A DNA stretch of 64,000 bases, taken from assembly GCA_003598085.1 (NCBI GenBank), contig QZKU01000042.1:28138-92137 (forward strand). The letters run 5' to 3'. The position numbers and the translations under genes were made by a program. Shown piece after piece: positions 20,145 through 64,000 of the stretch (the stretch's first letter is position 1; each line of letters starts with the position of its first letter). This DNA is from Candidatus Abyssobacteria bacterium SURF_5 (lineage in GTDB: Bacteria; Abyssobacteria; SURF-5). Under the pieces are notes generated by a model that was given only the letters and a program-made list of their open reading frames with translations, did not search any database and was not told where the DNA came from.

Positions 20145-20190
20145 TGCTGTTTTACCATTGCGGCGGGCACCGGGGCTGGGGGGTAAGTGC

Positions 20191-20727: not shown

Positions 20728-21560
20728 CAGGAATATCTCCCGCGAATTTCATCGACTTTGCGGCGCATGAGGGTCGAAAACTCCGGCCTCGAGTTGCTCG
20801 CATCATGATAAATGCCGGTGCGCCAGATGGTTTCTTCTTTTTCCTTGCCCAGAGGCGCGGCGTGCCGTTTGATCCAATTGAATATCTCGACTGGTTTTCT
20901 CGTGCCGAGCGCGTTCTTTCCGAAGTTGGTGGTGCACGGATAGACCACGTGGACCAGCGAAAGCCCGTTATTCTGAAGCGCCTTTGTGAGGCTCTCGACG
21001 AGAGAGGCGCCGTCCATGCTCACGTGCCTCGCGAGAAAGGTGGCGCCGGCTTCTTTCAGGATGCGCAGGACATCACGTTCCGGCTGGACCCAGTTCGGTT
21101 CAAACATTCCGTAGGGACTGCTGTCGGTCACAACGCCCGGCGGAGTCGTCCATCCGAACTGTCCGCCGGTTGATTGATAACCGAGGTTGTCGCAGACCAT
21201 GATGGTCATTTGCGCGTTCGTTCTGACGGCATGGAGTAGATGATTAAAGCCGATTCCGAACGCATCTCCGTCGCCCACGGTGAGAACGATCCGCTTCTCC
21301 GGCGGGAGCGCCAGCCGCAGACCGCGGGCAATCGCGTACACGCGTCCATGGGTTCCGGCGAAGCTGTCGCCTTTCCAGGTGGCGAACGTTTGCCGGCCCG
21401 CACAGCCGATGGAGGTTCCCCAGACGATATCACTGACCGTTAAGCCGACACCGTCGATCGCTTTGACGAGCGCCTTATGGCACTGTCCGAGTCCGCAGCC
21501 CGAACAAGCGGTGCTCGGTATTTTCCTTGAGCGCAGGTATTCGGTCGCGAGATAATCCAT
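20727..21560 (-). CDS. 2-oxoacid:ferredoxin oxidoreductase, beta (TPP-binding) subunit
   Basis: CSGCGLGQ, GDGDAFGIG and the TPP motif region. The start MDYLATEY at 21560 overlaps the alpha stop (TAATG). The track start 21662 is an upstream extension. Confidence 0.9.
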   Translation of the reverse strand: MDYLATEYLRSRKIPSTACSGCGLGQCHKALVKAIDGVGLTVSDIVWGTSIGCAGRQTFATWKGDSFAGTHGRVYAIARGLRLALPPEKRIVLTVGDGDAFGIGFNHLLHAVRTNAQMTIMVCDNLGYQSTGGQFGWTTPPGVVTDSSPYGMFEPNWVQPERDVLRILKEAGATFLARHVSMDGASLVESLTKALQNNGLSLVHVVYPCTTNFGKNALGTRKPVEIFNWIKRHAAPLGKEKEETIWRTGIYHDASNSRPEFSTLMRRKVDEIRGRYS

Positions 21561-47887: not shown

Positions 47888-48002
47888 TGATATATCATAA
47901 CATTTCCATTCGATGCGGGCATGTCCGGCTGATTTTCAATTGAAGAGGAGATTTGATAGAATGCAAAAAGGTAAAGCACTGTGGGATTGAGGAGGAGCGG
48001 CG

Positions 48003-48863
48003 ATGATTGTAGATTTCCATATTCATCCGTTCTGCAAGGAGGCGACCGTTGTGCCGAGTCCGGAAGAGGCGCTGAAGCGGATGTACGGGGAGGAGGAAGA
48101 AAGATTTGGGCCGCTGATGGCGGGCTTCCGCTGGATTTTTACAGAGAAGTCGCTTGATGCCATTATCCATGAGATGGATGGAGCGGGCATTGATAAGGCC
48201 GTCATTGTTGCCGCGGATTATTCGACCGCGTATGGGACGGTGGTCGTAACGAATGAGGACGTTGAGCGGATGAGCCGGCAGCACCCGGACAGATTCGTCC
48301 CTTTTTGCAGCGTTGATCCCGGCATGGGGCGTCTCGCAGTCGACAGGCTCGAGCATGCAGTGAGGGAACAGGGAGCGCGCGGGCTGAAACTTGTGCCGCC
48401 AATGCAGGGTTTCAGGTTTGATGATCCTCGCCACGACACGCTCTGGAAAATGGCGGCCGAACTCGGGATCATTGTGTGGACCCATGCCTCCCATCAGCGG
48501 AGCACGCCGGGGACCGATGCGCGGTTGGGCCAGCCGATGCTGATCGAGGGCGTGGCGCTGAAATTCCCGAAATTGAAGATTGTGCTCGGGCACTGCGGTT
48601 TCCCCTGGGTTTGGGAATCGTGGTCGCTGGCGGCGCGCCATGAGAACGTGTACGTTGATATTTCCTCTTTCAAGGATTTGTATAGCCTGTTTCCGTGGGA
48701 CGCGTACAGCGCGAGCGGCATCGAGCACAAGCTGCTCTTTGCTACTGATAATCCGCTGAATAATTTCGGCGACTGTGTGAATGCGGTCAAAGGGCTTTCG
48801 ATCAGTGATAGTTTCAAAGAGGCGATTTTTGGAGGGAACGCGCAAAAGCTGCTCGGGCTGTAG
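48003..48863 (+). CDS. Amidohydrolase-2-family TIM-barrel metal hydrolase
   Basis: 286 aa. MIVDFHIHPF ... HASH ... LGHCGFPW ... ATDNP pattern. Confidence 0.85.
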   Translation: MIVDFHIHPFCKEATVVPSPEEALKRMYGEEEERFGPLMAGFRWIFTEKSLDAIIHEMDGAGIDKAVIVAADYSTAYGTVVVTNEDVERMSRQHPDRFVPFCSVDPGMGRLAVDRLEHAVREQGARGLKLVPPMQGFRFDDPRHDTLWKMAAELGIIVWTHASHQRSTPGTDARLGQPMLIEGVALKFPKLKIVLGHCGFPWVWESWSLAARHENVYVDISSFKDLYSLFPWDAYSASGIEHKLLFATDNPLNNFGDCVNAVKGLSISDSFKEAIFGGNAQKLLGL

Positions 48864-48911
48864 CGGGCTTTGTTGCGGATTGTCTTTTTTGTGTTTTGAG
48901 GAGGGATTCAT

Positions 48912-49634
48912 ATGATTCGCAGCCTCGCAGTTGTTTTCGTGGTGGTCTTGTTCATGCCGGCGATTGCTGTTGCCGATGAGGCCAAAAAGGCTCGCAGTGA
49001 ATTGGAGCAAATGAATGTTGCGTGTTCGGAAGAGGAGTTGGTGAACCGCGTAAAGCAAGGGGATCAGCCAATAGTCACGTTGCTGCTCGATGCGGGCATC
49101 AGCCCTGATACACGGGAGGCGGGGGGACAACCGGCTCTAGTGATCGCCGTACAGAAAGGTCATCTTGATGTGGTGAAGCTTCTGCTGAACAGAGGCTGCA
49201 ATGCTAATGAAAGAAAAGGCGATACATGGTGTCCATTGACGTGGGCTGCAAGCGAGGGCCATACGGAGATAGCGAAGGCGCTTATCGAGCATGGCGCGGA
49301 TGTGAATATGCAGGACAAAAACGGCGCGACGGCCTTGATGCACGCGGCCTCGTGGGGCCGGGCGGAGATCGTCGACGCCTTGCTCGAAGGCGGCGCCGAC
49401 GTGAACGCACAGGATAAGGAAGGCTGGACTGCGCTGATGTTTGCCGCGTTCAGGCGATATCCGGAAACGGTTTCCATGCTGCTCGAGCGAGGAGCCGATC
49501 CAACTCTGAAAAATAAAGACGGCGAGACGGCGCTTAACGCTGCGGCCTCTGGCGGAAACACTGAGATACTGCAGATGCTCCGGGAGTGGAAGAACACGGA
49601 CGAACGCGGACGAACACGGACTGACACGGACTGA
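48912..49634 (+). CDS. Secreted ankyrin-repeat protein
   Basis: Signal peptide MIRSLAVVFVVVLFMPAIAVA. About five ANK repeats (G.TALM.AA..G..EIV..LLE.GADVNA). The last ~12 codons and the stop codon (49632-49634) lie inside repeat locus 3. Confidence 0.85.
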   Translation: MIRSLAVVFVVVLFMPAIAVADEAKKARSELEQMNVACSEEELVNRVKQGDQPIVTLLLDAGISPDTREAGGQPALVIAVQKGHLDVVKLLLNRGCNANERKGDTWCPLTWAASEGHTEIAKALIEHGADVNMQDKNGATALMHAASWGRAEIVDALLEGGADVNAQDKEGWTALMFAAFRRYPETVSMLLERGADPTLKNKDGETALNAAASGGNTEILQMLREWKNTDERGRTRTDTD

Positions 49635-49706
49635 CACGGACTGAAGGGACGGGCACGGGCAGAGCGGCACACGGACTAACATGGACGAACACGGACCGGC
49701 ACGGAT
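49593..49706 (+). repeat. CACGGAC-family short tandem repeat array, locus 3
   Basis: Units of about 10 nt (GAACACGGAC / TGACACGGAC) with 6 exact CACGGAC cores plus variants. The array overlaps the 3' end of the ankyrin gene. Confidence 0.9.
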
Positions 49707-49786
49707 ATGTTTGATAGGGGTGGTCACTAGGTGAACGAGCGTGGGCGGGCGGGCCGGTGACTGCAGCAAGATGCCGTCAGGCCCGG

Positions 49787-49814
49787 TTGCGGCGGGAGCC
49801 GCAAATTTCCTTTT
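49787..49814 (+). terminator. Probable intrinsic terminator downstream of the ankyrin gene and repeat locus 3
   Basis: 7-bp stem TTGCGGC / GCCGCAA with a GGGA loop, followed by ATTTCCTTTT. Confidence 0.5.
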
Positions 49815-49840
49815 AGAGTGAAAGGAAGGTATATTCAGCG

Positions 49841-50614
49841 ATGTCTCGAGAAGAATGCAAGAGGCTTGATCAAGCCGATGTGTTGAGAATTCTATTTCAT
49901 CCGCGGCGCGACAATACGCCGGATGACGAGCAAACGGTTCGGTTTTCCGTTGCTGATGATATTGAGATAGGCGGGCGGTTTCATCCCGCGGACAAAGATG
50001 CGCCGGTAATCCTGCTGTTTCACGGCAACGGAGAGATTGCATCCGATTACGACATGATTGCGCCGTTCTATCTGGAGAACGGGATTTCGCTGCTGGTGGT
50101 GGATTATCGCGGCTACGGCAAGAGCGGCGGAAGGCCAACAGTCTCGACGCTGCTGGATGACGCGCTCGCCGTGTATCGGCAGACGGGGAAGGGGCTGGCG
50201 GATCACGGTTATCAATATTCGCGGCTGTTCGTTATGGGGCGCTCGTTGGGCAGTGCGGCGGCGCTCGAGATTGCCGCAGAAGCTGGCAAGAGCATAAGCG
50301 GCCTGATTATCGAGAGCGGTTTTTCAAACCCGCTTGCCCTGATAAACCGTCTTGGCGGGCCATCGCTTAAGGAACTGGAAGAGACGTGCGGATTTGACAA
50401 TCTGAAGAAAATCGAGCGAGTAGAGGCGCCCACTCTCATTATTCACGGCGAGGAGGATTTCATTATTCCCCTCGAGGAAGGCGAGGCGCTTTTCAAAGGG
50501 TGCAAAGCGAAGAGGAAGGAATTCCTCTCGGTTCCCGGTGCGGGTCATAACGATCTGATTGTGCGAGGGCTGCGCCAGTATTTCAAAGCGATACGGAAGC
50601 TGGTGTCTGGGTGA
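49841..50614 (+). CDS. Alpha/beta hydrolase
   Basis: 257 aa. HGNGE oxyanion region, nucleophile elbow GRSLGS, and a C-terminal GAGHND. Confidence 0.85.
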   Translation: MSREECKRLDQADVLRILFHPRRDNTPDDEQTVRFSVADDIEIGGRFHPADKDAPVILLFHGNGEIASDYDMIAPFYLENGISLLVVDYRGYGKSGGRPTVSTLLDDALAVYRQTGKGLADHGYQYSRLFVMGRSLGSAAALEIAAEAGKSISGLIIESGFSNPLALINRLGGPSLKELEETCGFDNLKKIERVEAPTLIIHGEEDFIIPLEEGEALFKGCKAKRKEFLSVPGAGHNDLIVRGLRQYFKAIRKLVSG

Positions 50615-50619
50615 TCGCC

Positions 50620-51660
50620 TCAATCCTGGCGCTGCGGGAAATGGATTTCATTTGGCTGCGGCGGCGGAGGATTCTTTGCGGCCCAATCGCCTAATTCATG
50701 CCGAATATGGCGGAGGAAATCCCGCCACGTTTCCTTGTCTTTCAGAAAATCGCCGAGCCGGACGCGGCCGCGGTTCTCTCCGAATTGTTCGTACCATTTC
50801 AGGGCGGCGCCGATCAGAGGGGCGACGCGTTCATCCGGCAGAAACCGTGCGATAATCTGGCCGTTGACCGGGTGTCGCCCGTGTTTGCCGCCGCAGCGAA
50901 CGATCCAGCCGACTCGTTTGGCATGCCATGCGTCGAACGGGCATGTGCGGATGCAATCACCGCAGTAGAGGCATCCTTCGGGTATGTAGCGGGGATGGCC
51001 GGATTGTTCATCGCACACGAGGGCTTGTTCGCGACATGCCTCAATGCAGACACCGCACGCCTGGCAGGCGCTCTCTTCCCACCTCGGCTCGACGGCTCCC
51101 TGGAAGCCGAGTTCCATCTCATTCGTGCGCGCGCAGTCGATCGGACAGCCGGAGAAGGATATCTTGAATTTGTGGGCGAGGCTTCCTTTACCGAAGAAGC
51201 GATCGGAAATCTCACGGGCCATCGCCTGGGTATCGGTGAGTCCATTCGGATTGTATTCACAGCCGGAGCAGGCGGTCGGCACGCGCACGCGCGCGCCGCA
51301 TGAAGCGATGTGCTGGCCGGCCTTCGCCAGCTCATCGCGCACGTTGCCGAGATCGCGGTAGTTGACGTAGGGGATTTCGAGTGATTGCCGGAATGAGAGG
51401 TGCACGTAGTCGCCGCCGTAGCGGCGGGCCACCTCGAACGCTTTTTCCAATCGGTCAAGCGGTACTCGTCCGCCCGGGCACTGCAGGCGTACGGTGAACA
51501 GGTCTTTCTGGCGCTGCTTGATGATTCCGCCGCTCTTGAGCGTATTGAAATCCAGACTGCCTTTCTTGCCTTCGACCTCGATTTCGACCGGCACGCGCGC
51601 GGTTTGATCTTCGATGTGTTTGTCTGTACTCATCTTGTTTCCTTTTTCAAAATAAGACAT
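50620..51660 (-). CDS. Small nitrite/sulfite-reductase-family (siroheme / [4Fe-4S]) protein with an inserted ferredoxin domain
   Basis: NIR_SIR-like regions (GIIKQRQ...FTVRL, CSGC...SGCPIDCARTNE). 2x[4Fe-4S]-type insert CQACGVCIEAC ... CLYCGDCIRTCP. ATG 51660 is preceded by GAGGAA. The track start 51672 is a TTG codon. Confidence 0.75.
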   Translation of the reverse strand: MSYFEKGNKMSTDKHIEDQTARVPVEIEVEGKKGSLDFNTLKSGGIIKQRQKDLFTVRLQCPGGRVPLDRLEKAFEVARRYGGDYVHLSFRQSLEIPYVNYRDLGNVRDELAKAGQHIASCGARVRVPTACSGCEYNPNGLTDTQAMAREISDRFFGKGSLAHKFKISFSGCPIDCARTNEMELGFQGAVEPRWEESACQACGVCIEACREQALVCDEQSGHPRYIPEGCLYCGDCIRTCPFDAWHAKRVGWIVRCGGKHGRHPVNGQIIARFLPDERVAPLIGAALKWYEQFGENRGRVRLGDFLKDKETWRDFLRHIRHELGDWAAKNPPPPQPNEIHFPQRQD

Positions 51661-51712
51661 GAAGTTCCTCAATTGCTTGGTTAGCTTTGATAAACATTTT
51701 GCATAAAGGGCA

Positions 51713-52095: not shown

Positions 52096-52713
52096 TCAGT
52101 ACACGCGGTCCTTCTCGCAGCGGAATTCGATAAAGGCGAAGAGTTTATGGGCGAGTTGCGCAGCCTCGCGGTAATAGGGATGCGTCGCGGCCCGAGCGAT
52201 ATCGGTGAGGAAATTCGGCAGCCAGCCGAGCAGGTGATCCTGGAGGAAGGCGTCTTCCGCGTCCCGGCAAACCTCGATGGCTTCGTCGTCTTGGTGGAGG
52301 AACGCAAATGCCTGCTTTAACTTGAGATATCCCATGAAAGCGAGTTCGACAGCCACGTGATCGGGCGCCTCCGGCAGTTCCTTCGAGTAATTGAAACCGA
52401 AGGCTTTGTAGAAAGCGGCGACATCGGCGAGAATGATACCCTTGTCGGCCACACCGGTTTCGCCGTTGATGCGGCACTGTGATTCATATGGAGAAACACA
52501 GCCGCCGCTGCCGATGAGGTGATGATACGCGGATTGGAGGGAAGGATCGGACGTATACGCGACGACCTCCGCGGCCTCGACGCGCAGCTGAGGCGGCAGT
52601 TCCGGAACGAGAGAAGCCGCCGCAAGCATTGTCTCTTTTGTGGGCCAGCGAAACAAGTGCGAGCAGAAATTCCACGAGGTTCCATCGCGAAGCAGTCTTG
52701 CCATCATTTTCAT
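52096..52713 (-). CDS. TorD/NarJ/DmsD-family molybdoenzyme maturation chaperone
   Basis: ILADVAAFYKAFGF...PDHVAVELAFMGYL is the typical signature. ATG 52713 overlaps the gamma-subunit stop (ATGA). The track start 52848 is an upstream extension. Confidence 0.8.
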   Translation of the reverse strand: MKMMARLLRDGTSWNFCSHLFRWPTKETMLAAASLVPELPPQLRVEAAEVVAYTSDPSLQSAYHHLIGSGGCVSPYESQCRINGETGVADKGIILADVAAFYKAFGFNYSKELPEAPDHVAVELAFMGYLKLKQAFAFLHQDDEAIEVCRDAEDAFLQDHLLGWLPNFLTDIARAATHPYYREAAQLAHKLFAFIEFRCEKDRVY

Positions 52714-53594
52714 GCGCCTACCCCCAATCTCAGCGGCACCCATGCGCTGCGCATCTTGCGAGAGCCTGCATGTCCCTGACTTCCGTCCCATACAGCGAAG
52801 GCGATGAAGGCCTTGTCCCCCTTTTTGAATCCTCCCTGGCCGCTCCATTCAGGGACGGCGAGCGGACGAGAGAGAACGACATGCCATCGCCCCTTCTCCC
52901 ACAGGCCTGCTCCTTGCGAGGCTTGAGCCGGCAGATAGGCGAGAGTCCCAAAGCTTTCGGCGGTCAAGTCGTCGACGCTCGACGTGCGTTTCCCGGCGAG
53001 CGGATTTTGAGCGGCAAGCCCGGCAGTGAACAGTCTGTTCAATTCCTCTTTCTGCTCATCGGGCGCTGCATCGGAAGGATAATGGTCCACCGTCGCATTC
53101 GGGAAAATCGATTTCAGGCTCCATTCTCCGTCTTGCAGCGCCCGCTGATAGGACGCCTTCCATAGGTGGATATGGACAGGCCTGCCCATTGCGCCCATTG
53201 TCGAGTCCGGCGCTTCCGCCCCCGCCGCGACGGGTAGTTGGACGGCGACCGCATCGGAGAATCTTTGGGCTTCATCAACTTCGTCATTGGTTGCATCTTC
53301 CCAATCGATTCGGAACGCCACTTGGTCGTTATTACACAGAGCTTTAACCGAGATGCGGGGAAGGCCATTCATGAGTTTCGGTTCCGTCAGGTCCTGCGGC
53401 AGCAAATCGACGATTGCCTCTGGCGCCTGTTGCCACAGCGGGCTGTTGGGAGAGAGGTCCTGCAACTGCCCGTCTACGAAGAAGGCATTAACCCCCGCGA
53501 CCGGCGGCTGTTTTCCTTTTGCGCCTTGCGGGCACCCGAAAAAAGAAAGAGGCACGAAGAACAAGAGCAGGGCGATGATCAGCTTTTGATTCAT
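52710..53594 (-). CDS. Type II DMSO-reductase-family gamma subunit (EbdC/SerC/NxrC-like haem b domain), exported
   Basis: 294 aa with a signal peptide ending in the lipobox-like SFFGC. ISVKALCNNDQVAFRIDWEDAT...DAVAVQLP is an EB_dh-type pattern. Confidence 0.75.
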   Translation of the reverse strand: MNQKLIIALLLFFVPLSFFGCPQGAKGKQPPVAGVNAFFVDGQLQDLSPNSPLWQQAPEAIVDLLPQDLTEPKLMNGLPRISVKALCNNDQVAFRIDWEDATNDEVDEAQRFSDAVAVQLPVAAGAEAPDSTMGAMGRPVHIHLWKASYQRALQDGEWSLKSIFPNATVDHYPSDAAPDEQKEELNRLFTAGLAAQNPLAGKRTSSVDDLTAESFGTLAYLPAQASQGAGLWEKGRWHVVLSRPLAVPEWSGQGGFKKGDKAFIAFAVWDGSQGHAGSRKMRSAWVPLRLGVGA

Positions 53595-53627
53595 TTATAT
53601 ATTCCTCCAGTGTCTTCGCGAAGATAC

Positions 53628-54761
53628 TCAAGTGACGTTCATTCGAGGAACGCCGCGCTGCGTATCGAAAGCCGGGCGCACCGCGACCGGCTCGCGAACG
53701 GGGACAGCGACCAAAGTATCTCCATTATCGTTCAGCGCGCTTACGATATTGCCCTTTGTTTTAAAGGCCGCGACGGTTTTCGGCGTACACCCGAACAGAT
53801 TGATGAGCGCCGCCAGTTTCGGTTCGTTCTTATGGGCATTGCGATAGGTTTGAACCGCCTGCTCCGAGAGCGGCCCGAACAATTGGTTCAGGAACGGGTT
53901 CGGCACGTGGATCGGGGGAATGTAATAGACATTCGGCTCGAGCCCCAGTTGCGGGAACAAGGGGAGCGCCACTTTTTTCACATGAACCAGATAGTCGATC
54001 GGGTTATTCTCATTCGCCTTTTCGGGCACGGAAATCCATCCCCGCAGCCTGATCTTTCCGATGCATTGAGTGAAGCACCTTGGCTGTTCGTCCTGTTCGC
54101 CGAGCGGGAAACAAGCGATACATTTTTCAGAAACGCCGGTGCGCGAGTTAAAGAAAGTCTTCTTATAAGGGCATGCGCGCACGCATTCGCGGTAACCGCG
54201 ACAGCGTTTCTGGTCGATCAGGACGATCCCATCCTCGGGTCTCTTGTAGATGGAGCCGCGCGGGCAGGCCGCCAAACAAGCCGGATACGTGCAGTGGTTG
54301 CAGATGCGCGGGAGATAAAACATCCAGACGGGATGCGGCATTTCGACGGACATCCCGCCGTCGACCGTTCCGAAAATCTCATCCTCGCCGATATTCGGAT
54401 AGGAGTAATCGCCGCTTTCCGGCCGGTAGCCGAGGAGGCGCTCGCCTGCGGGGGCGGCCTCAAAGACGGTGCGACCCTCATAGCGTTCGCCGACCCATTC
54501 CTGCGGGCCGAGCATCTCGAGGATTTTCGAGTCGTACGCCAGCGGATACGAGCCGTAGGGCTTGCTTTCGACGTTGTTCCAGAGCATATACTCCTGCCCG
54601 CGGCCGGAGGTCCACGTGGTTTTGCAGGCGAGCGTGCATGTCTGGCAGGCGATGCACTTGTTCAGATCGAAAACGGCGGCGAATTGTTTAGCGGGCCTGG
54701 TCTCGCCATACCAGTAGCTCATGATTCGTCCGATTTGCCAGTTGAATACGCGTGCCATCAT
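53628..54761 (-). CDS. Type II DMSO-reductase-family beta subunit (NarH/NxrB-like, four Fe-S clusters)
   Basis: 377 aa. [17 protein letters not shown]...[28 protein letters not shown] and [13 protein letters not shown]. Its start overlaps the alpha stop. Confidence 0.9.
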
Positions 54762-57700
54762 TGACTCCTTTTCACGATATACGCGCCGGAGAGGTATCTT
54801 TTGAAGGATTCGCTTTCATACGTCGGCCGGATGCCGAGGGCCGCGGGCTGCCACAAAGCGGAGCCGTTGATGCCGCCGGGTTCGGCCTTCTCGATTTTCA
54901 CAAACGATTCGCGCGGGGCGCCCGTGGGGCAATGGACATCGGGCAAGAAACCCTTTCCGATGTTTTGGCCGGCGACGTCCTTCCGCACGAGCGAGTCGGT
55001 CATGTGCGTCGGCTTGAGCCAACCGCGCGTGGCGCTTTGGTGGCTGCCGGTGCGGAACATTGCCTGATAGTTTGTTTCGGGATTCTTCGCCAATCCGTCC
55101 TCGCGTGTCTCCTGTCCCTTGACGGAGCCGGGCGTCGCGGCATACATGTTGAACCACATCCGCGTAACGCCGAGCGGAGTGCCGGGATAATAGCGCGCGC
55201 GGCAGAGCAGGCGCGACACTTTGTAATCGGGGTCATCCGGTTTCCATCCGCGATAGGGGCGGTCGGCCGGATCGGCATCGATCCAGACGTAATCGCCGTC
55301 CTCGATTCCAAGTTTTCGGGCGTCCTGCGGGTTGATATCGACGTAGCCTTCGGAGACGAACGGCATTCGTTTGTCGCGGCGATAGATGTCGCCGAAGGGT
55401 CCGAACAGAATGGCGACCATATCGGTATCGATGGGCGTGGTGTGAGCGCCGTGGCGGTACTTGGGCGTATGAAAAATGAAGCGGTAGCCCTGGCTCATGA
55501 GCGGATGCTGAGTTTGTGACAGTTCGCTCCAGGGTTTGACGACGTTGCGCACCTGGCGGACTTCTCCGGATTGATCGCCCGGATCGAGGCCGTAGTCTTG
55601 CGGCGTGAGCGGCCGGATAAGCGGATGAGCTGCGGCCAGAATCGCATTCGGCTCATAAAAGGTGGAATCTATGGGCTCGCGATGCACCGGCAGGTTTTCA
55701 CCGTGCTCGATGAACTCGGGTTCGTCTCGATAAAATTCAAGCCTTCCCGTTTTCGTGTACCATGGCACGCTCTCCTCGGTCTGCTCGAAGCCGACGCATT
55801 TCGGCATTGTGCGCGACATCATGAGCGCAGGCACCCCTTTTTTCGCTTTTTCATGCAAATCGGCAAAAGAGTAGCCGGCGGTATTGCTGCTGTGGTCGAG
55901 GATGCGCTGGAGATAGACTCCGCTTTTCTGTTCGTCCGCGAATTTCCAATACAGCGAGAAGCGCGGGTCATCGATCAGCTCGCCGATCCGTTTACCGACC
56001 ATTGCGATGATCTCGATGTCGCCGCGACTGTCATGAATGCGGGCTATCGGCGTCTCGGGGTAAAGGGTAAGGAATGGGTTGGTGACGGACGCGCACATAT
56101 CGGGGTTTTTCGTTTCGGCCCACGAGTCGGCGGCGAAAACGATATCGGCATGTTCGCAGGAGGTGGACCACCACCACTCGTTCACGGCTATCATTTCGAA
56201 TTTCGGCAGCACGTTATGCACGACATTGTAGTGCCATTTCACATTTCCGAGGATCGAGTTGGCGTTTGCGAACCACAGCGTTTTGGTGGGCGCGGGCATG
56301 TGCGTTTTGCCGGTGAACAGTTTGCCGCCGACCTTCAGCGGATGGTCCTCGTGGTTGTAATAATGAGCCGATTCCGCCCGCCAATACACCTTTGGTCTGG
56401 CCGGCTTTGCGGGATCGAGTTCGATATCGAACGGGTTTTCATTGACGTACTGCGCGAGTCCATTGAACAGAGCGACCCGGTAATTGCCGGCATATGATCC
56501 CACGTTGCCGGCGATGCGGCCGACGTTGCCGGTCAAAGCGGCCAGCAAGAAGACGGCGCGATCCTTGAGGTCGTTGTTGAAGAACTGGTTGGGTCCCATT
56601 CCGATCGCCATAAGGGTCTTGCCGGGATGGGCCGCTATCTCACGTGCGAGCGAGACGATCGCATCTTTCGGCGCCCAGGTAATCTGCTCACCGTTTTCGG
56701 GCGAATAGTTATCGGCGAGGTAGTTTTTGATTACGGTGAAGATGGTGGCCGCTCGCACTGTCTCGTCGTTCGTCAGGGTTACCTCGAATTCCCCTTCGAG
56801 GGCGGGAGAAAGTCCTGAGTCATCGAAATGATTGCCGACCTGATCGCGGGTGATGGCGGCGGGCGCTTTTTTCTTAGTGTCCCAGACGACGAAATCGCCC
56901 CACTCGTCGCGCATCTCGGCCGGAATAAGCTGCTCCACCTGCTTATGGGGAGGGATTTTCTTGTCATCTGGTCGGACGACACGCGCCATGTTCTTGAGAT
57001 CGGCGTTCTGATAATCTTTGAAGATGTCGGAGGCATGCAGGAGCTTCATGTTGTCGTAGCGAACGAGCAGAGGCAGGTCGGTGAACCGTTTGACGTACTT
57101 TTCATCGAACAGCTTTTCCTGGACGATAACATTGGATAAGGCGAGCGCGAGAGCGGGCGTTGTTCCCGGGCGAACCATGATTCCGACGTCGGCCTTGTTC
57201 ACGGTTGCGCTATATTCGCAGGCGATGACGACGACGCGCGTGCCTTTCACGCGCGCCTCGGTGAGCCAGTGGGCGTCGGGCATTTTGGTGGTAATCCAAT
57301 TCATCCCCCACACGATTACGAGGTCCGCCTGTTCGGTTGAGTCCAGATCGAACTCGACGGTCTGCTGTCCGGTGACCATTGGATGTCCGGGCGGGAGATC
57401 GGTATGCCAGGAGTAGTTGTCCCATCCCCGCCCGCCGAGCGCATCGTCTTCCGAGACGCCGCGGATATGGCGATCGAGCAGCGCGAGCGAGTTTGCGAAG
57501 CGGTACATGCCAAACACGCGCGTCATGCCAAGGAGCGGCATCCCGCCACGGAACTTGAGGCATTGCGTGCCGGCGCCCCGCGTGACCTCGATCATCTCCT
57601 CGTCATATCCCTGTGCGCGCAGGCGCTTGGCGCCAGCTTCGCCGGAATAGGTCTGTGCGACATTGATCAACGTTCTTGCGGCCAGATCGGCCGCTTTCTC

Positions 57701-58234
57701 CCACGGTATTTTCTCCCAGGTATCGCGCGCGCGGTTGAAATACTCGACGGGCGGCTTTCCGGTGACCGGGTCACGCGGGAATCCTTTTTCGACCCATTCG
57801 CGGAAGCCGGTGCGCACCATGGGCGCCTTCACGCGGCGGTCTCCGTAGAAGCGTCGTGTGAGGGCGAGCCCTTTCTGGCAGCAGCGGGGGTCCCATCGGG
57901 CGGAGGCCTTGTTTCCGTAAAGGTCTTCGGCCTTTCCATAGCCGTAGGTGGCGCCGATGCGCACGATGACATCGTTTTTGACGTGCGCGGTGAGCAGGCA
58001 ATTATGCGTGTCGTTGGGCGCGCACAGAAACGTGAAGGTGCTGTCGGGTTTGAAGAGATCCCGATAGACTTTTTCCCAATCGCGATTCGGGTAAGCCTCG
58101 AGAGGGCTTTGCGCCGCCTCGACGAAGAGCCAGGGGAACTGTGCCAGGTATCCGGCAAAACCGAGCGCCGACGCTTTCTTAATGAACTCGCGGCGCCCAA
58201 ATCCGTTGCCGGCTTCCGATCCTTTGGTTGTCAT
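54758..58234 (-). CDS. Molybdopterin oxidoreductase alpha subunit, NarG/NxrA type (type II DMSO reductase family), Tat-exported
   Basis: 1158 aa. Twin-arginine motif GRREFIKK. N-terminal Fe-S motif CAPNDTHNC (C-x3-D-x3-C) followed by ...[32 protein letters not shown] aligns to the E. coli NarG ...QTRTPDAHFFTEVRYKGTK segment that carries the Asp Mo ligand. Confidence 0.9.
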
Positions 58235-58258
58235 GACACCTCCTGAGAAGGCAAATGA

Positions 58259-60583
58259 TTATTGCTTTGACTGTAGCGCACGAACAAAGGCGACAGTATC
58301 GTTAACGTCCTCTGCCGTCAATCTCGGGTAATTCAGATTGTCGGTTGCAAAGGCGGGCATGCCGAACATCGGGCGGCCGCGAATGATGGATGCCTGCAGG
58401 TATCCGTCGGTGGCGGCAGCCAGGAACGCGGAATTTGCAAGCTCCGGCGCCCATCCGTTGATGCCTCCCTGTCCATGGCACCCGGTACAGTTCTGATTGA
58501 AGAGGGTTTGGCCGTTTTGAGCGTCCCCCTGAACGAGCCGGCCCGGCGCTTGCGCCGGCAACTTCGCCAGTCGCCGGCGGATATATGTGATTGCATTGGA
58601 CAGTTGTTGATCGGTCACCTCCGGCGCAGAAAGTTGCCCGGGCGCATCTTTGGGCTGAATACAGCGGCCCAACCGAACGGCGGCCCCCAGATAGTCGTCG
58701 GATGCAGCTTCAAGAAGGGAAGGATTGACGATGTTTACCGCGTATTTCCCCTCTCCTCTTTCGGCGTGACATGGAGCGCACGATTCTGCGAAAACCGCCT
58801 GGCCATCCATAATTGAATCTGCCGGCGGAAGAACGGGCAGTTTCGCTTTCTTTCCCGACCGGAGGCTTTCGATGTAATCGATGAGGGAGGCCAATTCCTG
58901 AGCATTCAGCTCCGGCCGGCTTCCCATCGCGGTGTCTTCGCGCCCCTGTGTCAACATGTGGTAGAGGAACTTTGTGTCTGCCGTTTGAAGGAAGACCTCA
59001 TTGGAAAGATCGGGTCCGATGGCGGTGTTGGAGTCGTGGCAGACTGCGCAACTCTCGCGATAGATGGCTTTGCCGAGTTCGAGTTCATGCTGTGCGGAGG
59101 AGACATCCTGCCACGAGGGCGCCGCGGGTTGCTGCGAGCGCAGATATTCGACCAGCGATTGAATTTCGGCGGCACGAAGGCCGCCCTCTTTTGTTCCCCA
59201 CGGCGGCATCTTGCGGCCGGGACGCCCATTGACCAGATTTTCTCGAATGAACCGATCTGAAGCAACGGCCAAGAACTCCTGGCTCGTCACTGCCGGGAAT
59301 TTTTGGGTGAAAATACCGAAGCCGGCTCCCTGTCCGCTGACACCGTGACAGGAATTGCAGAATGCGCTGTAGAGTGATTTTCCGTCGGCAGAGAATTCGC
59401 GCTTGCCGAGCCGCTCGGACTCGAACCGGCCGGCAGGCCATCTGTTCATGGGGACATCGGCTCCACGCAGGGAGAGCATGTAGAGCGTAACTGCCTCGAG
59501 TTCCTCCGGCCTCAGCTCGGCGTGCGGCATTAGGCTGCCGGCGACAATGAGCGCGGGATCGAGCAGATGCGCCTTATGCCAGTTCGCCAGGTTATGTTCG
59601 CCTTCGACATACGAGAAATCGAGACGGTTTGGATTCTTCTTTCCGGTTGCCGACAAATCAGGGCCTTCGTCGCCGCCTGTCCCATTGATCCGGTGACAGC
59701 CGAGGCATCCTTTCCGATAAACAAGTGCTTTGGCGTCGACGAAGGCGGGCGCTTGCATGAGAGTATTGAGAAACGCATTTATCGCTGTGACTTCTTCCGG
59801 ATCGATCGGGCCGTAGCTCTCCAGCCACGCCGGCTCGATCGACTGTTGCTGCAACTCGAGGTGGTTCTGATGCCAATCGGCAAGAAATCCTCTGATGCCG
59901 ACCGTGGAGAGATCGGGCCCTGTGCCGCGCCCGCGCGCATCAACTTTATGGCACGCAAGACAATCGTATTGTTCGAACAGGCGCTTTCCACGGTCGGCCA
60001 ACTCTTGCGGCGGCACTTTCACGTGAGTGTGGCAACTGCCGCAGCCGGCCTGAAAGTAGCCGGCGGGAATGAGCGGGTCTTCCCAATGGGGGACGGTTCC
60101 ATGCGCGTCCTCGGTTGTTGTTGCAAGACCCTGTCCGCCATGACACAACGTGCAGCCGAACTGCTCGGGCGGATGTATATCGAATACCCACTGCGGATGA
60201 GCGCCGTAGGGCTGCTTCTGGTCCGCCAGATTGGGATTGTCAAAACCCGCGTGACATGTTGTGCAGCGATCGGAGACACCATATGCCGCCGACGTTATCT
60301 GCTTGATTTCCTGGGGGAACGGCGGCGGGCTTTTCCCCTCGGCGACGGCGACCGCGGCGAGCACGCTCTTGAAATTTCTCTGATGCTTCAGCCAGGGTTT
60401 CAGATAATGCTCGGTTATTATGGCGGCCAGCAGGCAGAGCAAAACGACTCCTGAAGTGATCAGCAAGGCCCAGCGTGCTCGCCTGCCTGCGGGAGTAACT
60501 GGATCGAACGTCGGGACGGTCAACCCTGAGAAGACCTCCGGGCGATGATTCTGTCCTGAGTTTCCGTTCAATGAATCGGCCAT
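58259..60583 (-). CDS. Membrane-anchored multihaem cytochrome c (nine CxxCH motifs)
   Basis: Start MADSLNG at 60583, which overlaps the cytochrome b stop by 16 nt. One N-terminal TM. CxxCH motifs: CTTCH, CTLCH, CGSCH, CLACH, CLGCH, CNSCH, CAVCH, CAPCH, CTGCH. The track start 60916 is an upstream extension inside cytochrome b. Confidence 0.85.
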   Translation of the reverse strand: MADSLNGNSGQNHRPEVFSGLTVPTFDPVTPAGRRARWALLITSGVVLLCLLAAIITEHYLKPWLKHQRNFKSVLAAVAVAEGKSPPPFPQEIKQITSAAYGVSDRCTTCHAGFDNPNLADQKQPYGAHPQWVFDIHPPEQFGCTLCHGGQGLATTTEDAHGTVPHWEDPLIPAGYFQAGCGSCHTHVKVPPQELADRGKRLFEQYDCLACHKVDARGRGTGPDLSTVGIRGFLADWHQNHLELQQQSIEPAWLESYGPIDPEEVTAINAFLNTLMQAPAFVDAKALVYRKGCLGCHRINGTGGDEGPDLSATGKKNPNRLDFSYVEGEHNLANWHKAHLLDPALIVAGSLMPHAELRPEELEAVTLYMLSLRGADVPMNRWPAGRFESERLGKREFSADGKSLYSAFCNSCHGVSGQGAGFGIFTQKFPAVTSQEFLAVASDRFIRENLVNGRPGRKMPPWGTKEGGLRAAEIQSLVEYLRSQQPAAPSWQDVSSAQHELELGKAIYRESCAVCHDSNTAIGPDLSNEVFLQTADTKFLYHMLTQGREDTAMGSRPELNAQELASLIDYIESLRSGKKAKLPVLPPADSIMDGQAVFAESCAPCHAERGEGKYAVNIVNPSLLEAASDDYLGAAVRLGRCIQPKDAPGQLSAPEVTDQQLSNAITYIRRRLAKLPAQAPGRLVQGDAQNGQTLFNQNCTGCHGQGGINGWAPELANSAFLAAATDGYLQASIIRGRPMFGMPAFATDNLNYPRLTAEDVNDTVAFVRALQSKQ

Positions 60584-62124
60584 TGGCTGTGGCTCCAATA
60601 AAAGTTCCAGTTTGGGCCGCGATGGACAGTCGCAACGTATGTCAGGATTATGAAAGCGACAAAGAAACAGGTGAACAACGCGATTGCGCCGGCGCGGGTG
60701 GAATTGTGCCGCCTGATGACATACAGCGACCAGCCCGCGAAAACCGCAACCAGGAGCGTCCCCGGGTTGAGCAGGATGATGACCAGTTGGGGGATGCCGG
60801 GGAACCAATTGCGCAGCCACCCAAACCGTATGGTGAAGGCGAGCAGCGCCACAACGACAATTGTCCCGAACAGCGCGCTCTGCAAGGCGAGCTTTCTTCT
60901 GCCGTCGCCGGCGCACCAGAGTCCACCCGGCTCTCTCTCACGATCGAGAAACGGGATAAGCCCTAATCCGATGAGAACGAGCGTTGGAATGCCGATGCCG
61001 CCCATGAAGGCGGAATAGGAGACCAGTTCCTGCAGTCCGAGGAAATACCACGGCGCCTTGGCCGGGTTTTCGGGGACGGCCGGATTCGCCAGTTCTTTTA
61101 AGGGAGCGTCGGCAATGAGCGCGAGCACAAGGCAGATCGCGCAGGTGGCCATGAAAACGGCCACTTCGGCATAGAACGCGTTTGGCCAGGAGGTGATCGT
61201 GTTTCCCTGGCCCAGATCGACATGCGGCGTTTTCCCCCGGACGAGCGCCATCAAGCCGTATGTCTTCTGCGGGCTCGGGTGGAAGGCGACATGCTGGCCC
61301 GTCAGCAGGCGCACCGGCGCCTCAGGCTCATCGAGGGGCCGGGCGAGGCCGCCGTCCTTGCGCACGCGCCAGAAGTGGACGCCGAGGAATATCGCCAGAA
61401 CCAGCGGCAGGAGGATTACGTGCAAAAGATAGAAGCGGGTGAGCGCCTCCTGTCCGACGGTATCCGCCCCAAGCAGGACGCGTTTTTGGATTCCGCCCGG
61501 GTCGAAGAATCTGGTAATACCGAGGGCGTCGGTCAGCTCACGCGGAGATTGAGCGATGTTGGAGCCGATCGTTATCGCCCAGTAGGCCAACTGGTCCCAG
61601 GGCAGCAGATATCCGGTGAAGCTGAGGCCGAGCGTCAGGACGAGCAGGGCGAGTCCAACAAGCCAATTAAATTCACGCGGGCTCTTGTACGAAGATGTAT
61701 AGAAGACGCGGGCCATGTGGAGAAACACGAGCAGTACCATGAGGTGGGCGCTCCAGCGATGGATATTGCGGATGAACTGGCCGGTCGGAACAATGAAGTG
61801 GATATCTTTGATCGATTCGTATGCCTGCAAAGTGGACGGTTTGTAATAGACCATCAGCAGGACGCCGGTGATGGTTAAAATGATGAAGGCGGCGAGGGCG
61901 CCGACTCCCAGGCCGCAGGTGCTCCAGAACTTGAGTGTTCGCTCCTGCACACGCGTCGAATGGATATGCAGGAAAAAGTTGGAGAATACGGCTTCCGAGC
62001 GGGTGCGGTCGGTATCGGGTCGGCCATGCCGGATTGCGGCGTCGCGAAGGTTTGCGGGCGTCTGCTGAAGATTCTCAGTGAACGTTTCGAGCGCGGTTCC
62101 AAATTGTTTCTTGTCCTGAGCCAT
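60568..62124 (-). CDS. Cytochrome b (b6-type N-terminal part fused to a subunit-IV-like part, plus extra C-terminal helices)
   Basis: 518 aa. His pairs at H122/H136 and H235/H250. GYLLPWDQLAYWA. Subunit-IV-like KAPWYFLGLQE. Confidence 0.9.
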   Translation of the reverse strand: MAQDKKQFGTALETFTENLQQTPANLRDAAIRHGRPDTDRTRSEAVFSNFFLHIHSTRVQERTLKFWSTCGLGVGALAAFIILTITGVLLMVYYKPSTLQAYESIKDIHFIVPTGQFIRNIHRWSAHLMVLLVFLHMARVFYTSSYKSPREFNWLVGLALLVLTLGLSFTGYLLPWDQLAYWAITIGSNIAQSPRELTDALGITRFFDPGGIQKRVLLGADTVGQEALTRFYLLHVILLPLVLAIFLGVHFWRVRKDGGLARPLDEPEAPVRLLTGQHVAFHPSPQKTYGLMALVRGKTPHVDLGQGNTITSWPNAFYAEVAVFMATCAICLVLALIADAPLKELANPAVPENPAKAPWYFLGLQELVSYSAFMGGIGIPTLVLIGLGLIPFLDREREPGGLWCAGDGRRKLALQSALFGTIVVVALLAFTIRFGWLRNWFPGIPQLVIILLNPGTLLVAVFAGWSLYVIRRHNSTRAGAIALFTCFFVAFIILTYVATVHRGPNWNFYWSHSQWPIH

Positions 62125-62132
62125 ATCGCCTC

Positions 62133-62600
62133 CTAGACGTGAAATTTGGTTCCGGCGGATACTTGCTTCTGCACGTCGACAACCAGTTGTCCGTCGGGCG
62201 CCATCGCGACTTCGAGCCAGGGCAGTGGAGAGGGCGCAGGTCCTTTTTTCACCTCGCCCTGAAGCCCAAATTTTGAGCCGTGGCAGGGGCAGTCGAAACC
62301 TGTGGGGCTCTGCGAGACTATGCAGCCGAGGTGAGTGCAGACGCCGGAGATGGCGAAGAAACCTTCCCCATCACGGAAGAGGAATGCGCGGGCTGCAGGC
62401 ATCCAGCGGACAGTCTCCGGCGCAAAATCATCCGGCCGGCCTATTTTGATTTTGCCCGCCTCACCGGTGATAACGGCAGGAAACGGGAGCCGGGCGATCC
62501 CGCCGGCGGTAACGACGAGTGCGGCTCCGCAGGTCCACGTGGCGGCTTTCCCCAAAAAATCACGCCGCGGGACTGGTTGTGGTTTTCGCAGTTCGCTCAT
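62133..62600 (-). CDS. Rieske [2Fe-2S] protein, Tat-exported
   Basis: Start MSELRK at 62600 (ATGA overlap with the upstream gene). PRRDFLGK twin-arginine motif. CTHLGC and CPCHGS cluster boxes. Confidence 0.9.
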   Translation of the reverse strand: MSELRKPQPVPRRDFLGKAATWTCGAALVVTAGGIARLPFPAVITGEAGKIKIGRPDDFAPETVRWMPAARAFLFRDGEGFFAISGVCTHLGCIVSQSPTGFDCPCHGSKFGLQGEVKKGPAPSPLPWLEVAMAPDGQLVVDVQKQVSAGTKFHV

Positions 62601-64000
62601 TCGAGTTTCTCCTGGAAACAAAAGCGTTCCATGGTGATAGCGCCGGTTGGACACCTCATGGCGCAACAGGCGCACCGTATGCATTTTTCTTCGTCTTTAA
62701 TGATTGCGGAGAGCGGCTTGCCGGGGTCAAGGAGCGAGATGCTGCGGGCGAGCGCGCCGATCTCGTCATTCGACTCGAGGTTGTCGAGAGACACGAGCCG
62801 CAGGCATAGGGTCGGGCAGACATCGGCGCAGCCGCCGCAGAGAACGCATTTTTCCGAGTCGAAAATCGTATTGATTCCGCAGTCGAGACAGCGTGAGGCT
62901 TCCACCCGCGCTCGCGCTTCATTGTATCCTTTCTCGACGCTCAGGGATTTGTCCTTGAGGCGCAGCGAGGGATCCGTGACCGGAATCTTCACTCGCGCCA
63001 ATCGCTCGTAGCCCTTCTCGCGCCGATAGGCCGGCGGTTCGAAATGGAGCTCGAGCGCGCGTGGGTCGAGAGAATTTCCTGTCAGGAATTCGAAGACGGA
63101 GCGCGCGGCTTTTTTTCCGCTCGCAATCGCGTCGATCATCAGCCGGGGGCCGTGAGCGACGTCACCGGCAAAAAAGACGGATGCGGCCGTGCTTTGCATG
63201 GTTTGCGGGTTGATCGAAGGGATTCCGCGGTCGCTGATCTCGATGCCGGTTTGAGCGGGATCGATAAACGAGAGGTCCGATGCCTGGCCGACGGCAAGGA
63301 GGACGGTATCGCACTCGATCGTTGTTAATTCGGCGGGATCGAATTCAGGCGCGAACCGTTTATTTTCGTCATACACGCGCAGCACCTTCTGGAAGACTGC
63401 GCCGGTGACGCGGCCCTGATCGTCCCGGATGATTTCTTTCGGGCCGAGGCTGGTTCTGAGGGTTATTCCTTCCTCGGCGCCTTCCACGATTTCGACATCG
63501 TCGGCAGGCATCTCGATCAGCGATTCGAGACAACACAGAGTCACCTCGCGTACTCCGGGCACGCGAACGGCGGTGCGGGCCGAATCAAAAAATTCCTGCC
63601 GCAGGACGGTTCGGCTGACGTCGTACGCCACGTTTCCGCCGCCGATTACGACCACCCGCTTCCCGATATCGACCGGGTTTCTCAGCGCTACATCCCTGAG
63701 GAAATCGACGCCGCCAAGGACGCCTGGGCCGTCGATTCCCGGCAGGCGCAGCCCGCGCGATCTCTTTGCGCCCACGGCCACAACGACGGCATCGTGTTCC
63801 CTTGTAAGCGACTCAAACGCGATGTCTTTGCCGATCTGGATTCCGCAACGAATTTCGGCACCCAAAGACTCAATCAGGGCAACCTCGGCTCTTATTACGT
63901 CGCGCGGCAGGCGGTATTCCGGCACGCCCAGGTAGAGCATGCCGGCGGCGACCGGCTCCATCTCATAGATGATCGGTTGCAGGCCGAGTAAAGCCAGGTC
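62597..64000 (-). CDS. GltD-like FAD/NAD(P)-binding flavoprotein with a C-terminal 2x[4Fe-4S] ferredoxin domain (5' end outside the window)
   Basis: The frame stays open to the window edge (...DLALLGLQPIIYEMEPVAAGMLYLGVPEYRLP). VVVIGGGNVAYD NAD fold, FFAGDVAHGP. C-terminal CLDCG...CVLCGGCADVCP and CIRCACCAMRCP. Confidence 0.85.
   Translation of the reverse strand, partial: DLALLGLQPIIYEMEPVAAGMLYLGVPEYRLPRDVIRAEVALIESLGAEIRCGIQIGKDIAFESLTREHDAVVVAVGAKRSRGLRLPGIDGPGVLGGVDFLRDVALRNPVDIGKRVVVIGGGNVAYDVSRTVLRQEFFDSARTAVRVPGVREVTLCCLESLIEMPADDVEIVEGAEEGITLRTSLGPKEIIRDDQGRVTGAVFQKVLRVYDENKRFAPEFDPAELTTIECDTVLLAVGQASDLSFIDPAQTGIEISDRGIPSINPQTMQSTAASVFFAGDVAHGPRLMIDAIASGKKAARSVFEFLTGNSLDPRALELHFEPPAYRREKGYERLARVKIPVTDPSLRLKDKSLSVEKGYNEARARVEASRCLDCGINTIFDSEKCVLCGGCADVCPTLCLRLVSLDNLESNDEIGALARSISLLDPGKPLSAIIKDEEKCIRCACCAMRCPTGAITMERFCFQEKLE

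Follow-up and report, generated by a model that had tools for sequence, protein, structure and literature searches.

What does a periplasmic molybdoenzyme of the nitrite oxidoreductase/nitrate reductase (NXR/NAR) kind do when its genes stand with those for a Rieske/cytochrome b complex of its own, a multihaem cytochrome c and an NAD(P)H flavoprotein? The question is raised by eight consecutive, closely packed genes, all on the minus strand, at positions 52096-64000 of a 64,000-nucleotide (nt) stretch of DNA from Candidatus Abyssobacteria bacterium SURF_5 (assembly GCA_003598085.1, contig QZKU01000042.1, positions 28,138-92,137 of the forward strand), the whole of which we call the window. We posit that these genes encode a self-contained, energy-conserving unit for periplasmic nitrate respiration, a reading that we consider probable. 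With coordinates re-read from the window and domains assigned from Pfam and NCBIfam, the genes are, in order of transcription:

62597-64000, minus strand: GltD/NfnB-like NAD(P)H flavoprotein, C-terminal 467 amino acids (aa) only, cut at the window end (Pfam Pyr_redox_2, Fer4; NCBIfam PRK12771, PRK12814)
62133-62600, minus strand: Rieske [2Fe-2S] protein exported by twin-arginine translocation (Tat), 155 aa (Pfam Rieske; NCBIfam TAT signal)
60568-62124, minus strand: cytochrome b of the fused b6/subunit IV type, 518 aa, with about 8-9 transmembrane helices (Pfam Cytochrome_B; NCBIfam ExtP and ExtQ)
58259-60583, minus strand: membrane-anchored nine-haem cytochrome c, 774 aa (Pfam Cytochrome_C7, then repeated Cytochrom_C and CBB3)
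54758-58234, minus strand: Tat-exported molybdopterin alpha subunit of the periplasmic NXR/pNAR type, 1158 aa (PDB 7b04_B; NCBIfam DMSO_red_II_alp)
53628-54761, minus strand: four-cluster Fe-S beta subunit (NxrB/NarH-like), 377 aa (Pfam Fer4_11; NCBIfam DMSO_red_II_bet, narH)
52710-53594, minus strand: exported EbdC/NxrC-type haem b gamma subunit, probably a lipoprotein, 294 aa (Pfam EB_dh; NCBIfam DMSO_red_II_gam)
52096-52713, minus strand: NarJ/TorD-type assembly chaperone (delta), 205 aa (Pfam Nitrate_red_del; NCBIfam DMSO_red_II_cha)

Are these genes one unit? An earlier note, written from the letters of the window, had described them as a single operon; all eight are present where it placed them and in the order it gave, and the junctions at 58234/58259 and 60568/60583 are exactly as it reported. 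The flavoprotein/Rieske, alpha/beta and gamma/delta junctions are ATGA overlaps, and the stop of the cytochrome b gene is overlapped by 16 nt by the cytochrome c gene (60568/60583). The remaining neighbours are separated by 8 nt (Rieske/cytochrome b), 24 nt containing a GGAGG (cytochrome c/alpha, 58234/58259) and 33 nt (beta/gamma). Scans for promoter- and terminator-like sites gave nothing beyond the shuffled background, terminator-like sites being rarer than in shuffled sequence, and no such site lies in a gap between the genes. Because the junctions are tight or overlapping and the gaps are devoid of such sites, these observations support a single predicted transcription unit. The 64-kb window returned no tRNA or Rfam match.

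The arrangement is not peculiar to one genome. In a scan of one genome per species we collected 80 loci with alpha identities of 64-82% and searched all eight window proteins against them; carriers are named here by record title, and some taxon labels in the collection look unreliable. The flavoprotein, Rieske protein, cytochrome b and multihaem cytochrome precede alpha in the same order in 60 of the 61 loci that have at least 6.6 kb of upstream sequence, beta, gamma and delta follow it in all but one of the 62 with enough sequence downstream, and the genes are closely spaced throughout. At 81-83% identity, the alpha subunits nearest to that of the window belong to Candidatus Abyssubacteria and to similar metagenome contigs, in which the same eight genes have an Rrf2-family regulator ahead of them; SURF_17 is among these Abyssubacteria (82%). 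The eight-gene unit is also found on the separately fetched contigs L001, L002, L085 and L086, which include two long-read contigs of metagenome-assembled genomes (MAGs). Carriers extend to Acidobacteriota (Vicinamibacterales, Bryobacterales, Pyrinomonadaceae and Blastocatellia) and Planctomycetota (Thermoguttaceae, Pirellulales, Phycisphaerae and a Brocadiia MAG), as well as Binatia, Eisenbacteria, Zixibacteria and Abyssubacteria, and two Thermoguttaceae MAGs (L016 and L057) have the full module, flavoprotein included. The earlier note had proposed a search of related genomes for the same synteny, and the eight-gene order does recur across several phyla.

What lies around the module is also partly shared. 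An Rrf2-family regulator stands immediately upstream in at least 21 loci, and in L086 its end overlaps the start of the flavoprotein gene. In about 10 loci the downstream genes encode a RIC/YtfE di-iron protein of Fe-S repair, a Crp/Fnr-family regulator, a polytopic membrane protein and a small protein. The window itself has, 423 nt downstream of the chaperone gene, a 350-aa sirohaem-type sulfite/nitrite reductase-like (NIR_SIR) protein with an inserted ferredoxin domain (50620-51672, minus strand). Its best NCBIfam match, AsrC, is far under the cut-off, and the gene is not kept beside the module in relatives.

The catalytic subunit has the hallmarks of a dimethyl sulfoxide (DMSO) reductase of type II, namely, an FS0 cluster motif and an Asp molybdenum ligand in alpha, with beta, gamma and a chaperone encoded in the same operon. 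Alpha matches the NCBIfam model DMSO_red_II_alp (E=1.3e-95), and its best PDB match is Kuenenia NxrA (7b04_B, E=2.8e-283, 41% identity). A twin-arginine motif (GRREFIKK) marks it for Tat export. Its CAPNDTHNC motif aligns with C67, N70, D71 and C75 of Kuenenia stuttgartiensis NxrA (KsNxrA), that is, with the three-Cys/one-Asp ligand set of FS0 and the substrate Asn N70, and its HTDLPP motif carries the molybdenum-ligand Asp that aligns with Asp275 of KsNxrA. EbdA has Ile where NXR and NAR enzymes have the substrate Asn (PMC8387239). Gamma matches PDB 7b04_C and 2ivf_C, with the Met and Lys ligands of haem b aligned. Its signal peptide ends in FFGC, and most orthologs have a lipobox-like Cys at this place (LLAAC, LMAGC, LSAAC and similar). 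This Cys after the signal peptide suggests that gamma is probably a lipoprotein and that the enzyme would be lipid-anchored at the outer face of the membrane. No lipid anchor is mentioned in the accounts of Kuenenia NXR (PMC8387239) or of the Nitrotoga gamma subunit, which has a signal peptide without a membrane helix (PMC6050957).

Does alpha then belong to a well-characterised clade whose genomes already explain the arrangement, as the earlier note had allowed? By our tree, it does not. We built a neighbour-joining tree (100 bootstraps) from unnamed full-length representatives at 50% identity and a partial Kuenenia sequence taken from an alignment printout; full-length Nitrospira, Nitrospina and Nitrotoga references are outside its sampling. 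The 84 module-linked alpha sequences form one clade of their own with 100% bootstrap. Its sister is a Gaiellaceae-type enzyme (54% identity) whose locus has only alpha, beta, gamma and delta, and the same is true of the SAR202-type alpha (45% identity), which likewise comes without Rieske/cytochrome b genes. L036, a Sandaracinaceae MAG and the sole locus in the clade that lacks the upstream genes, branches outside all other members (79% support for the rest). The earlier proposal of a dedicated, hard-wired module is thus upheld by the near-absolute linkage, by the single alpha clade and by the reduced gene content of the next relatives.

Kuenenia NxrA falls in a different clade of this tree, and the module alpha, 41% identical to KsNxrA and grouping with the Gaiellaceae type, is by these two measures not inside the clade of Nitrospira, Nitrospina and anammox NXR. 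For comparison, Chicano et al. put the identity of Kuenenia NxrA at about 60% with the enzymes of Nitrospira and Nitrospina and at about 40% with those of Nitrotoga and Hydrogenobaculum (PMC8387239). Over 105 N-terminal residues, compared with machine-read and error-prone supplement sequence, the window alpha is 61-62% identical to Nitrotoga and Hydrogenobaculum versus 43-48% to Kuenenia, Nitrospira and Nitrospina. Provisionally, then, the window alpha appears closer over this one short stretch to the Nitrotoga/Hydrogenobaculum “sister clade,” in which Kitzinger et al. placed Nitrotoga NXR along with the Hydrogenobacter periplasmic NAR, an enzyme that has been characterised, and putative NarG proteins from organisms known to reduce nitrate (PMC6050957).

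What kind of quinol-oxidising complex is encoded upstream? The Rieske protein has a twin-arginine motif and the cluster-binding boxes CTHLGC...CPCHGSKF, of which CTHLGC and CPCHG occur in all orthologs with a Rieske match. It also has an “SF” residue pair, present in 65 of 66 orthologs, which has been associated with a midpoint potential near +200 to +230 mV (Baymann et al., PMC3509893). The N-terminal half of cytochrome b resembles b6 (PDB 1vf5_A, E=5.6e-39), and its C-terminal half is of the ExtQ/subunit IV type; the protein is split into two genes in 7 of the 67 sequences. The helix-B haem-ligand residues His122 and His136 are invariant in the 67-sequence alignment, the helix-D His pair was read in the window sequence, where it aligns with the b6 haem-ligand His, and the Qo-site motif is an invariant APWY across orthologs in place of PEWY or PDWY.

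We also considered whether cytochrome b might hold a haem ci. Residue 70 is a Cys in the window, one position from the haem ci Cys35 of b6, and in relatives it is Met, Trp, Phe or Leu. Because it is not conserved, we rejected a haem ci site as a feature of the family; by this alignment, Cys70 is a lineage-specific residue of the window cytochrome b.

The third subunit of the complex has exactly nine CxxCH motifs and one N-terminal transmembrane helix. There was no cytochrome c1 or f match for this 7-9 haem cytochrome, and we infer that it would stand in for cytochrome c1/f. Nine haems are a minority variant in the family, seen in the Abyssubacteria-like group: the orthologs have seven haems in 58 loci, nine in 8 and eight in 3.

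The window holds the flavoprotein incompletely. What lies within the window is a Pyr_redox_2 domain and a C-terminal 2x[4Fe-4S] domain. The earlier note had described a flavoprotein with two such clusters and had suggested looking beyond position 64000 for its N terminus. That part is available from the protein database, in which the full-length SURF_5 protein (P0128, 622 aa) has an additional N-terminal two-cluster Fer4_20 domain; the C-terminal pair stands, but the complete protein carries at least four Fe-S clusters, not two. Exact-match look-ups with the cytochrome b and alpha sequences of the window gave no hit, and what lies upstream of the unit is read from relatives. The motifs for flavin adenine dinucleotide (FAD) and for NAD(P)H are conserved across 53 orthologs, and so are all 17 Cys residues of the clusters. 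The nearest solved relatives are NfnB/StnC-type flavoproteins. Based on the near-absolute linkage, the ATGA overlap with the Rieske gene and the conserved cofactor sites, we argue that the flavoprotein is predicted to be an integral fifth redox subunit located on the n-side (cytoplasmic). A search with the Thermoguttaceae flavoprotein returned MAG proteins only, with Methylomirabilota proteins among the close relatives and none named Thermogutta terrifontis.

A second GltD/NfnB-like flavoprotein is encoded in the window at 22799-24436 (minus strand). It has the same architecture of Fer4_20, Pyr_redox_2 and C-terminal Fer4 domains, is 31% identical to the module flavoprotein and lies directly upstream of a three-gene 2-oxoacid:ferredoxin oxidoreductase set (20191-22732, minus strand) and an AMP-binding enzyme (18633-20210, minus strand). 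Its position next to the oxidoreductase set suggests that the same type of NAD(P)H/Fe-S adaptor may be used with another low-potential enzyme.

In total, the genes, cofactor motifs, export and membrane signals, operon layout and conservation shown here are consistent with a mechanism in which the products of the eight genes would act as one assembly. The Rieske/cytochrome b complex would oxidise quinol at its Qo site, and the Rieske cluster would pass its electron to the membrane-anchored multihaem cytochrome c in the place of cytochrome c1 or f. From there electrons would enter the high-potential haem b of the lipid-anchored gamma subunit and move through the four Fe-S clusters of beta and FS0 to the molybdenum centre of the periplasmic alpha, at which nitrite would be formed from nitrate. 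Since the catalytic site is turned to the periplasm, the Q cycle of the Rieske/cytochrome b complex, and not a NarI redox loop, would conserve the energy. A similar model, in which a Rieske/cytochrome b complex feeds an outward-facing Nar, has been put forward for Methanoperedens (PMC4683180). Most likely, the flavoprotein would feed electrons from NAD(P)H into the b-haem/Qi side, acting as a built-in, non-pumping NAD(P)H dehydrogenase and making the assembly an NAD(P)H/quinol:nitrate oxidoreductase. Since the carriers are mostly heterotrophic, we take NAD(P)H oxidation to be the simpler reading of its role.

Why nitrate reduction, and why in this direction? T. terrifontis R1 grows anaerobically on nitrate, and its only Nar is THTE_1506-1509, part of a gene cluster with the same order as the module (PMC5673643). 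For the Candidatus Abyssubacteria MAGs nearest to the window, which stem from subsurface fluids that contain nitrate, a lack of cytochrome c oxidases has been reported (PMC6121073). Together with the Rrf2, RIC and Crp/Fnr neighbours, the provisional likeness of alpha, over the one stretch, to a sister clade that includes known nitrate reducers, and a haloarchaeal precedent described below, these observations lead us to favour nitrate respiration. Kuenenia NXR works both ways in vitro, and it reduces nitrate about 25 times faster than it oxidises nitrite (PMC8387239). The earlier note had been neutral as to direction and had offered reverse electron transport and bifurcation as examples; its module survives, and the indirect evidence favours ordinary forward nitrate respiration in their place.

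Several considerations weigh against this proposal. Neither the direction of electron flow nor the part played by NAD(P)H, as donor or as product, can be read from sequence, and the SURF_5 unit and its whole clade are known from genes alone. Enzymes of the alpha lineage are bidirectional, and Nitrotoga oxidises nitrite with a related enzyme (PMC6050957). The Rrf2 regulators score as members of the generic Rrf2 family and not specifically as NsrR. The membership of the Thermogutta alpha in the module clade is presumed from gene order and from family-level MAGs, and the gene expected to encode the T. terrifontis flavoprotein, THTE_1513, carries no annotation in the available part of the PMC5673643 text. 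Furthermore, the homolog from Zixibacteria RBG-1 lacks three of five residues conserved in Nar and NXR and might use another substrate (Castelle et al., PMC3903129).

Could the same parts do something else? The nitrate/nitrite couple has a potential high enough to pay for the reduction of NAD(P)+ from menaquinol, and the complex might bifurcate the electrons of quinol, sending one downhill through the Rieske protein and multihaem cytochrome to nitrate and the other uphill, by way of the b haems and the Fe-S/FAD subunit, to NAD(P)+. Low-potential reductant would then be gained at no cost in proton-motive force, and Abyssubacteria, with their Wood-Ljungdahl pathway, could use it (PMC6121073). 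The NfnB/StnC-type enzymes nearest to the flavoprotein are bifurcating, and the subunit composition is the same as that of the Kuenenia complexes R/b-2 and R/b-3, for which such a mechanism has been proposed (bioRxiv 10.1101/855817). However, it is not known to have been directly demonstrated for any Rieske/cytochrome b complex, anammox included; an electron would have to cross the membrane against the membrane potential; and most carriers (Acidobacteriota, Planctomycetota) appear to be heterotrophs that are not short of NAD(P)H. We regard quinol bifurcation as rather unlikely on these grounds. The broader idea, that of a Rieske/cytochrome b-based bifurcating (in reverse, confurcating) machine in which the nitrate/nitrite potential moves electrons between quinol and NAD(P)(H) through the NfnB-like flavoprotein, we would entertain as a serious though unlikely possibility. 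If it were true, a mechanism long proposed for anammox complexes would be common in subsurface lineages as well as in Acidobacteriota, Planctomycetota and Binatia, and it could be studied in heterotrophs that can be cultivated, Thermogutta for one. In a related reading, many carriers can also run the unit backwards as cryptic nitrite oxidisers. What if nitrite oxidation were the main business of the enzyme? Electrons from nitrite would enter the multihaem cytochrome, and part of them would be forced in reverse through the Rieske/cytochrome b complex onto quinone and NAD(P)+, giving a dedicated device for reverse electron transport and cryptic nitrite oxidisers in many phyla. Alpha does belong to the periplasmic NXR-like lineage and finds its best solved match in Kuenenia NxrA, nitrite is oxidised by the related enzyme of Nitrotoga (PMC6050957), and several MAG studies have taken such genes as putative NXR (bioRxiv 10.1101/2020.05.19.103440; PMC6094997). 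Yet the closest relatives reportedly have no cytochrome c oxidases (PMC6121073), the cultured carrier Thermogutta reduces nitrate (PMC5673643), carrier lineages are mostly non-autotrophic, and the Crp/Fnr and RIC neighbours fit anaerobic nitrogen-oxide respiration. Alpha also lies outside the Kuenenia NxrA clade and, in the single stretch that was compared, resembles Nitrotoga and Hydrogenobaculum more than Nitrospira and Nitrospina. Nitrite oxidation as the unit's function seems to us quite improbable.

It is also conceivable that the unit is separable. The flavoprotein, Rieske protein, cytochrome b and multihaem cytochrome might form a general complex III that serves oxidases or other acceptors too, with the molybdoenzyme as one client among several and not as part of a fixed supercomplex; T. 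terrifontis lists the same three genes as its only complex III, also for aerobic respiration with an aa3 oxidase (PMC5673643 supplement), and the extra monohaem domains of the cytochrome c could dock other partners. We give this little credence, given that the genes are linked almost without exception, in a single order and with overlapping reading frames, in phylogenetically wide-ranging carriers, and given that the alpha relatives without these genes lie outside the module clade. Might alpha instead act on another periplasmic substrate, for example, another oxyanion, which would place the module outside the nitrogen cycle? Among the type II DMSO reductases are enzymes that act on chlorate, perchlorate, selenate and hydrocarbons, and Castelle et al. 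proposed a new enzyme type for the Zixibacteria homolog on account of its missing residues (PMC3903129). Against this, the module alpha keeps the substrate Asn and molybdenum-ligand Asp of NXR and NAR, the former being replaced by Ile in EbdA; the RIC/YtfE neighbours point to nitrosative stress; and Thermogutta respires nitrate with its only Nar in the same gene order. We consider a substrate other than nitrate or nitrite very improbable.

If the unit is one for energy-conserving nitrate respiration, as we favour, has nature arrived at this solution before? Each element has a precedent. The earlier note knew of no description of this exact gene order, and full-text literature searches gave us no account of the eight-gene unit as such or of its distribution, although an earlier one in Kameya 2017 or ten Brink 2013 is possible; the claim of novelty must be narrowed, however, as the Thermogutta adjacency (PMC5673643) and the haloarchaeal clusters that join Rieske/cytochrome b genes to a periplasmic Nar (pNar) (PMC3509893) were already known. 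In the haloarchaeal clusters (narB/narC with narGH; Martinez-Espinosa 2007; Baymann 2012, PMC3509893), an outward-facing, Tat-exported NarG-type enzyme likewise has a Rieske protein and a cytochrome b of its own encoded beside it. There, too, a Q cycle is proposed in place of the NarI loop, and there is also an EbdC-like periplasmic haem b protein (PMC3509893). The two systems differ in that the window alpha shares only about 33% identity with Halorussus pNarG, an outgroup sequence in our tree, in that the haloarchaeal cluster has not been described with an NAD(P)H flavoprotein or a multihaem cytochrome c, and in the lineage of cytochrome b, which is Actinobacteria/Thermus-like in haloarchaea and b6/“green”-type in the module.

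In T. terrifontis R1, THTE_1506-1512 have the order TorD, “NarI” (gamma), NarH, NarG, cytochrome c, cytochrome b and Rieske protein, and Elcheninov 2017 noted that the complex III genes THTE_1510-1512 adjoin the NarGHI/TorD genes THTE_1506-1509 and proposed that they take part in respiring nitrate (PMC5673643). That annotation made the enzyme a cytoplasmic NarGHI, left the flavoprotein unmentioned and did not recognise the conservation across phyla; the likeness that we draw is one of gene order, not of sequences.

The anammox complexes R/b-2 (kuste4569-74) and R/b-3 (kustd1480-85) of Kuenenia stuttgartiensis also combine a Rieske/cytochrome b pair with a GltD-like NAD(P) oxidoreductase and a multihaem cytochrome c in one cluster, a likeness that rests on subunit composition and not on sequences. 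In contrast to the module, these clusters are not known to be linked to nxr, and R/b-3 has a HAO-like octahaem protein instead. Their composition was reportedly laid out in 2013 by Kartal and in 2016 by de Almeida. The Kuenenia NXR-ABC structure (PDB 7B04; PMC8387239) is the best solved match for alpha and gamma and shares the FS0/substrate motif, the Asp molybdenum ligand and the Met/Lys haem b. That enzyme is soluble and forms tubules with NXR-T inside the anammoxosome, whereas the module gamma looks lipid-anchored and its partner would be the Rieske/cytochrome b complex of its own operon. The Nitrotoga NXR/periplasmic NAR sister clade resembles the module in being about 40% identical to Kuenenia NxrA and periplasmic, with a signal-peptide gamma and no transmembrane anchor. 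Nitrotoga loci have nxrABC and a chaperone only, however, and the organism has alternative complex III (ACIII), not a Rieske/cytochrome b complex (PMC6050957).

Why does this matter? Genes of the alpha clade are common in MAGs from soil, groundwater and wastewater, and their inconsistent labelling as narG, nxrA or “putative NXR” has led to claims of new nitrite oxidisers. MAG homologs have been called narGHI (PMC6121073), a putative NXR that is perhaps a nitrate reductase or a new enzyme type (PMC3903129), a putative nitrite oxidoreductase of new nitrite-oxidising bacteria (bioRxiv 10.1101/2020.05.19.103440) and a sign of “likely nitrite oxidation” (PMC6094997). The near-obligate linkage to a Rieske/cytochrome b complex and flavoprotein offers a concrete basis for reading the clade as one of energy-conserving periplasmic nitrate respiration, a bacterial counterpart of the haloarchaeal pNar solution that was apparently assembled independently. 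The function of the anammox Rieske/cytochrome b complexes has stayed open because anammox bacteria are not genetically manipulable (PMC8387239). The same unusual set of subunits occurs in lineages with at least one member in culture, which may open that question to experiment.

Two further features of the window lie apart from the module. At 39336-41213 (plus strand), a CoA-binding/succinyl-CoA-ligase-like domain of the acetyl-CoA synthetase alpha type is joined in one protein with an RNase H/RVT_3 domain at the C terminus, which is an uncommon pairing. At 47895-50138 (minus strand), between a metallo-beta-lactamase-fold gene and the NIR_SIR gene, lie two adjacent open reading frames of 411 and 333 aa with TTG starts and no Pfam match, which may not both be real genes.

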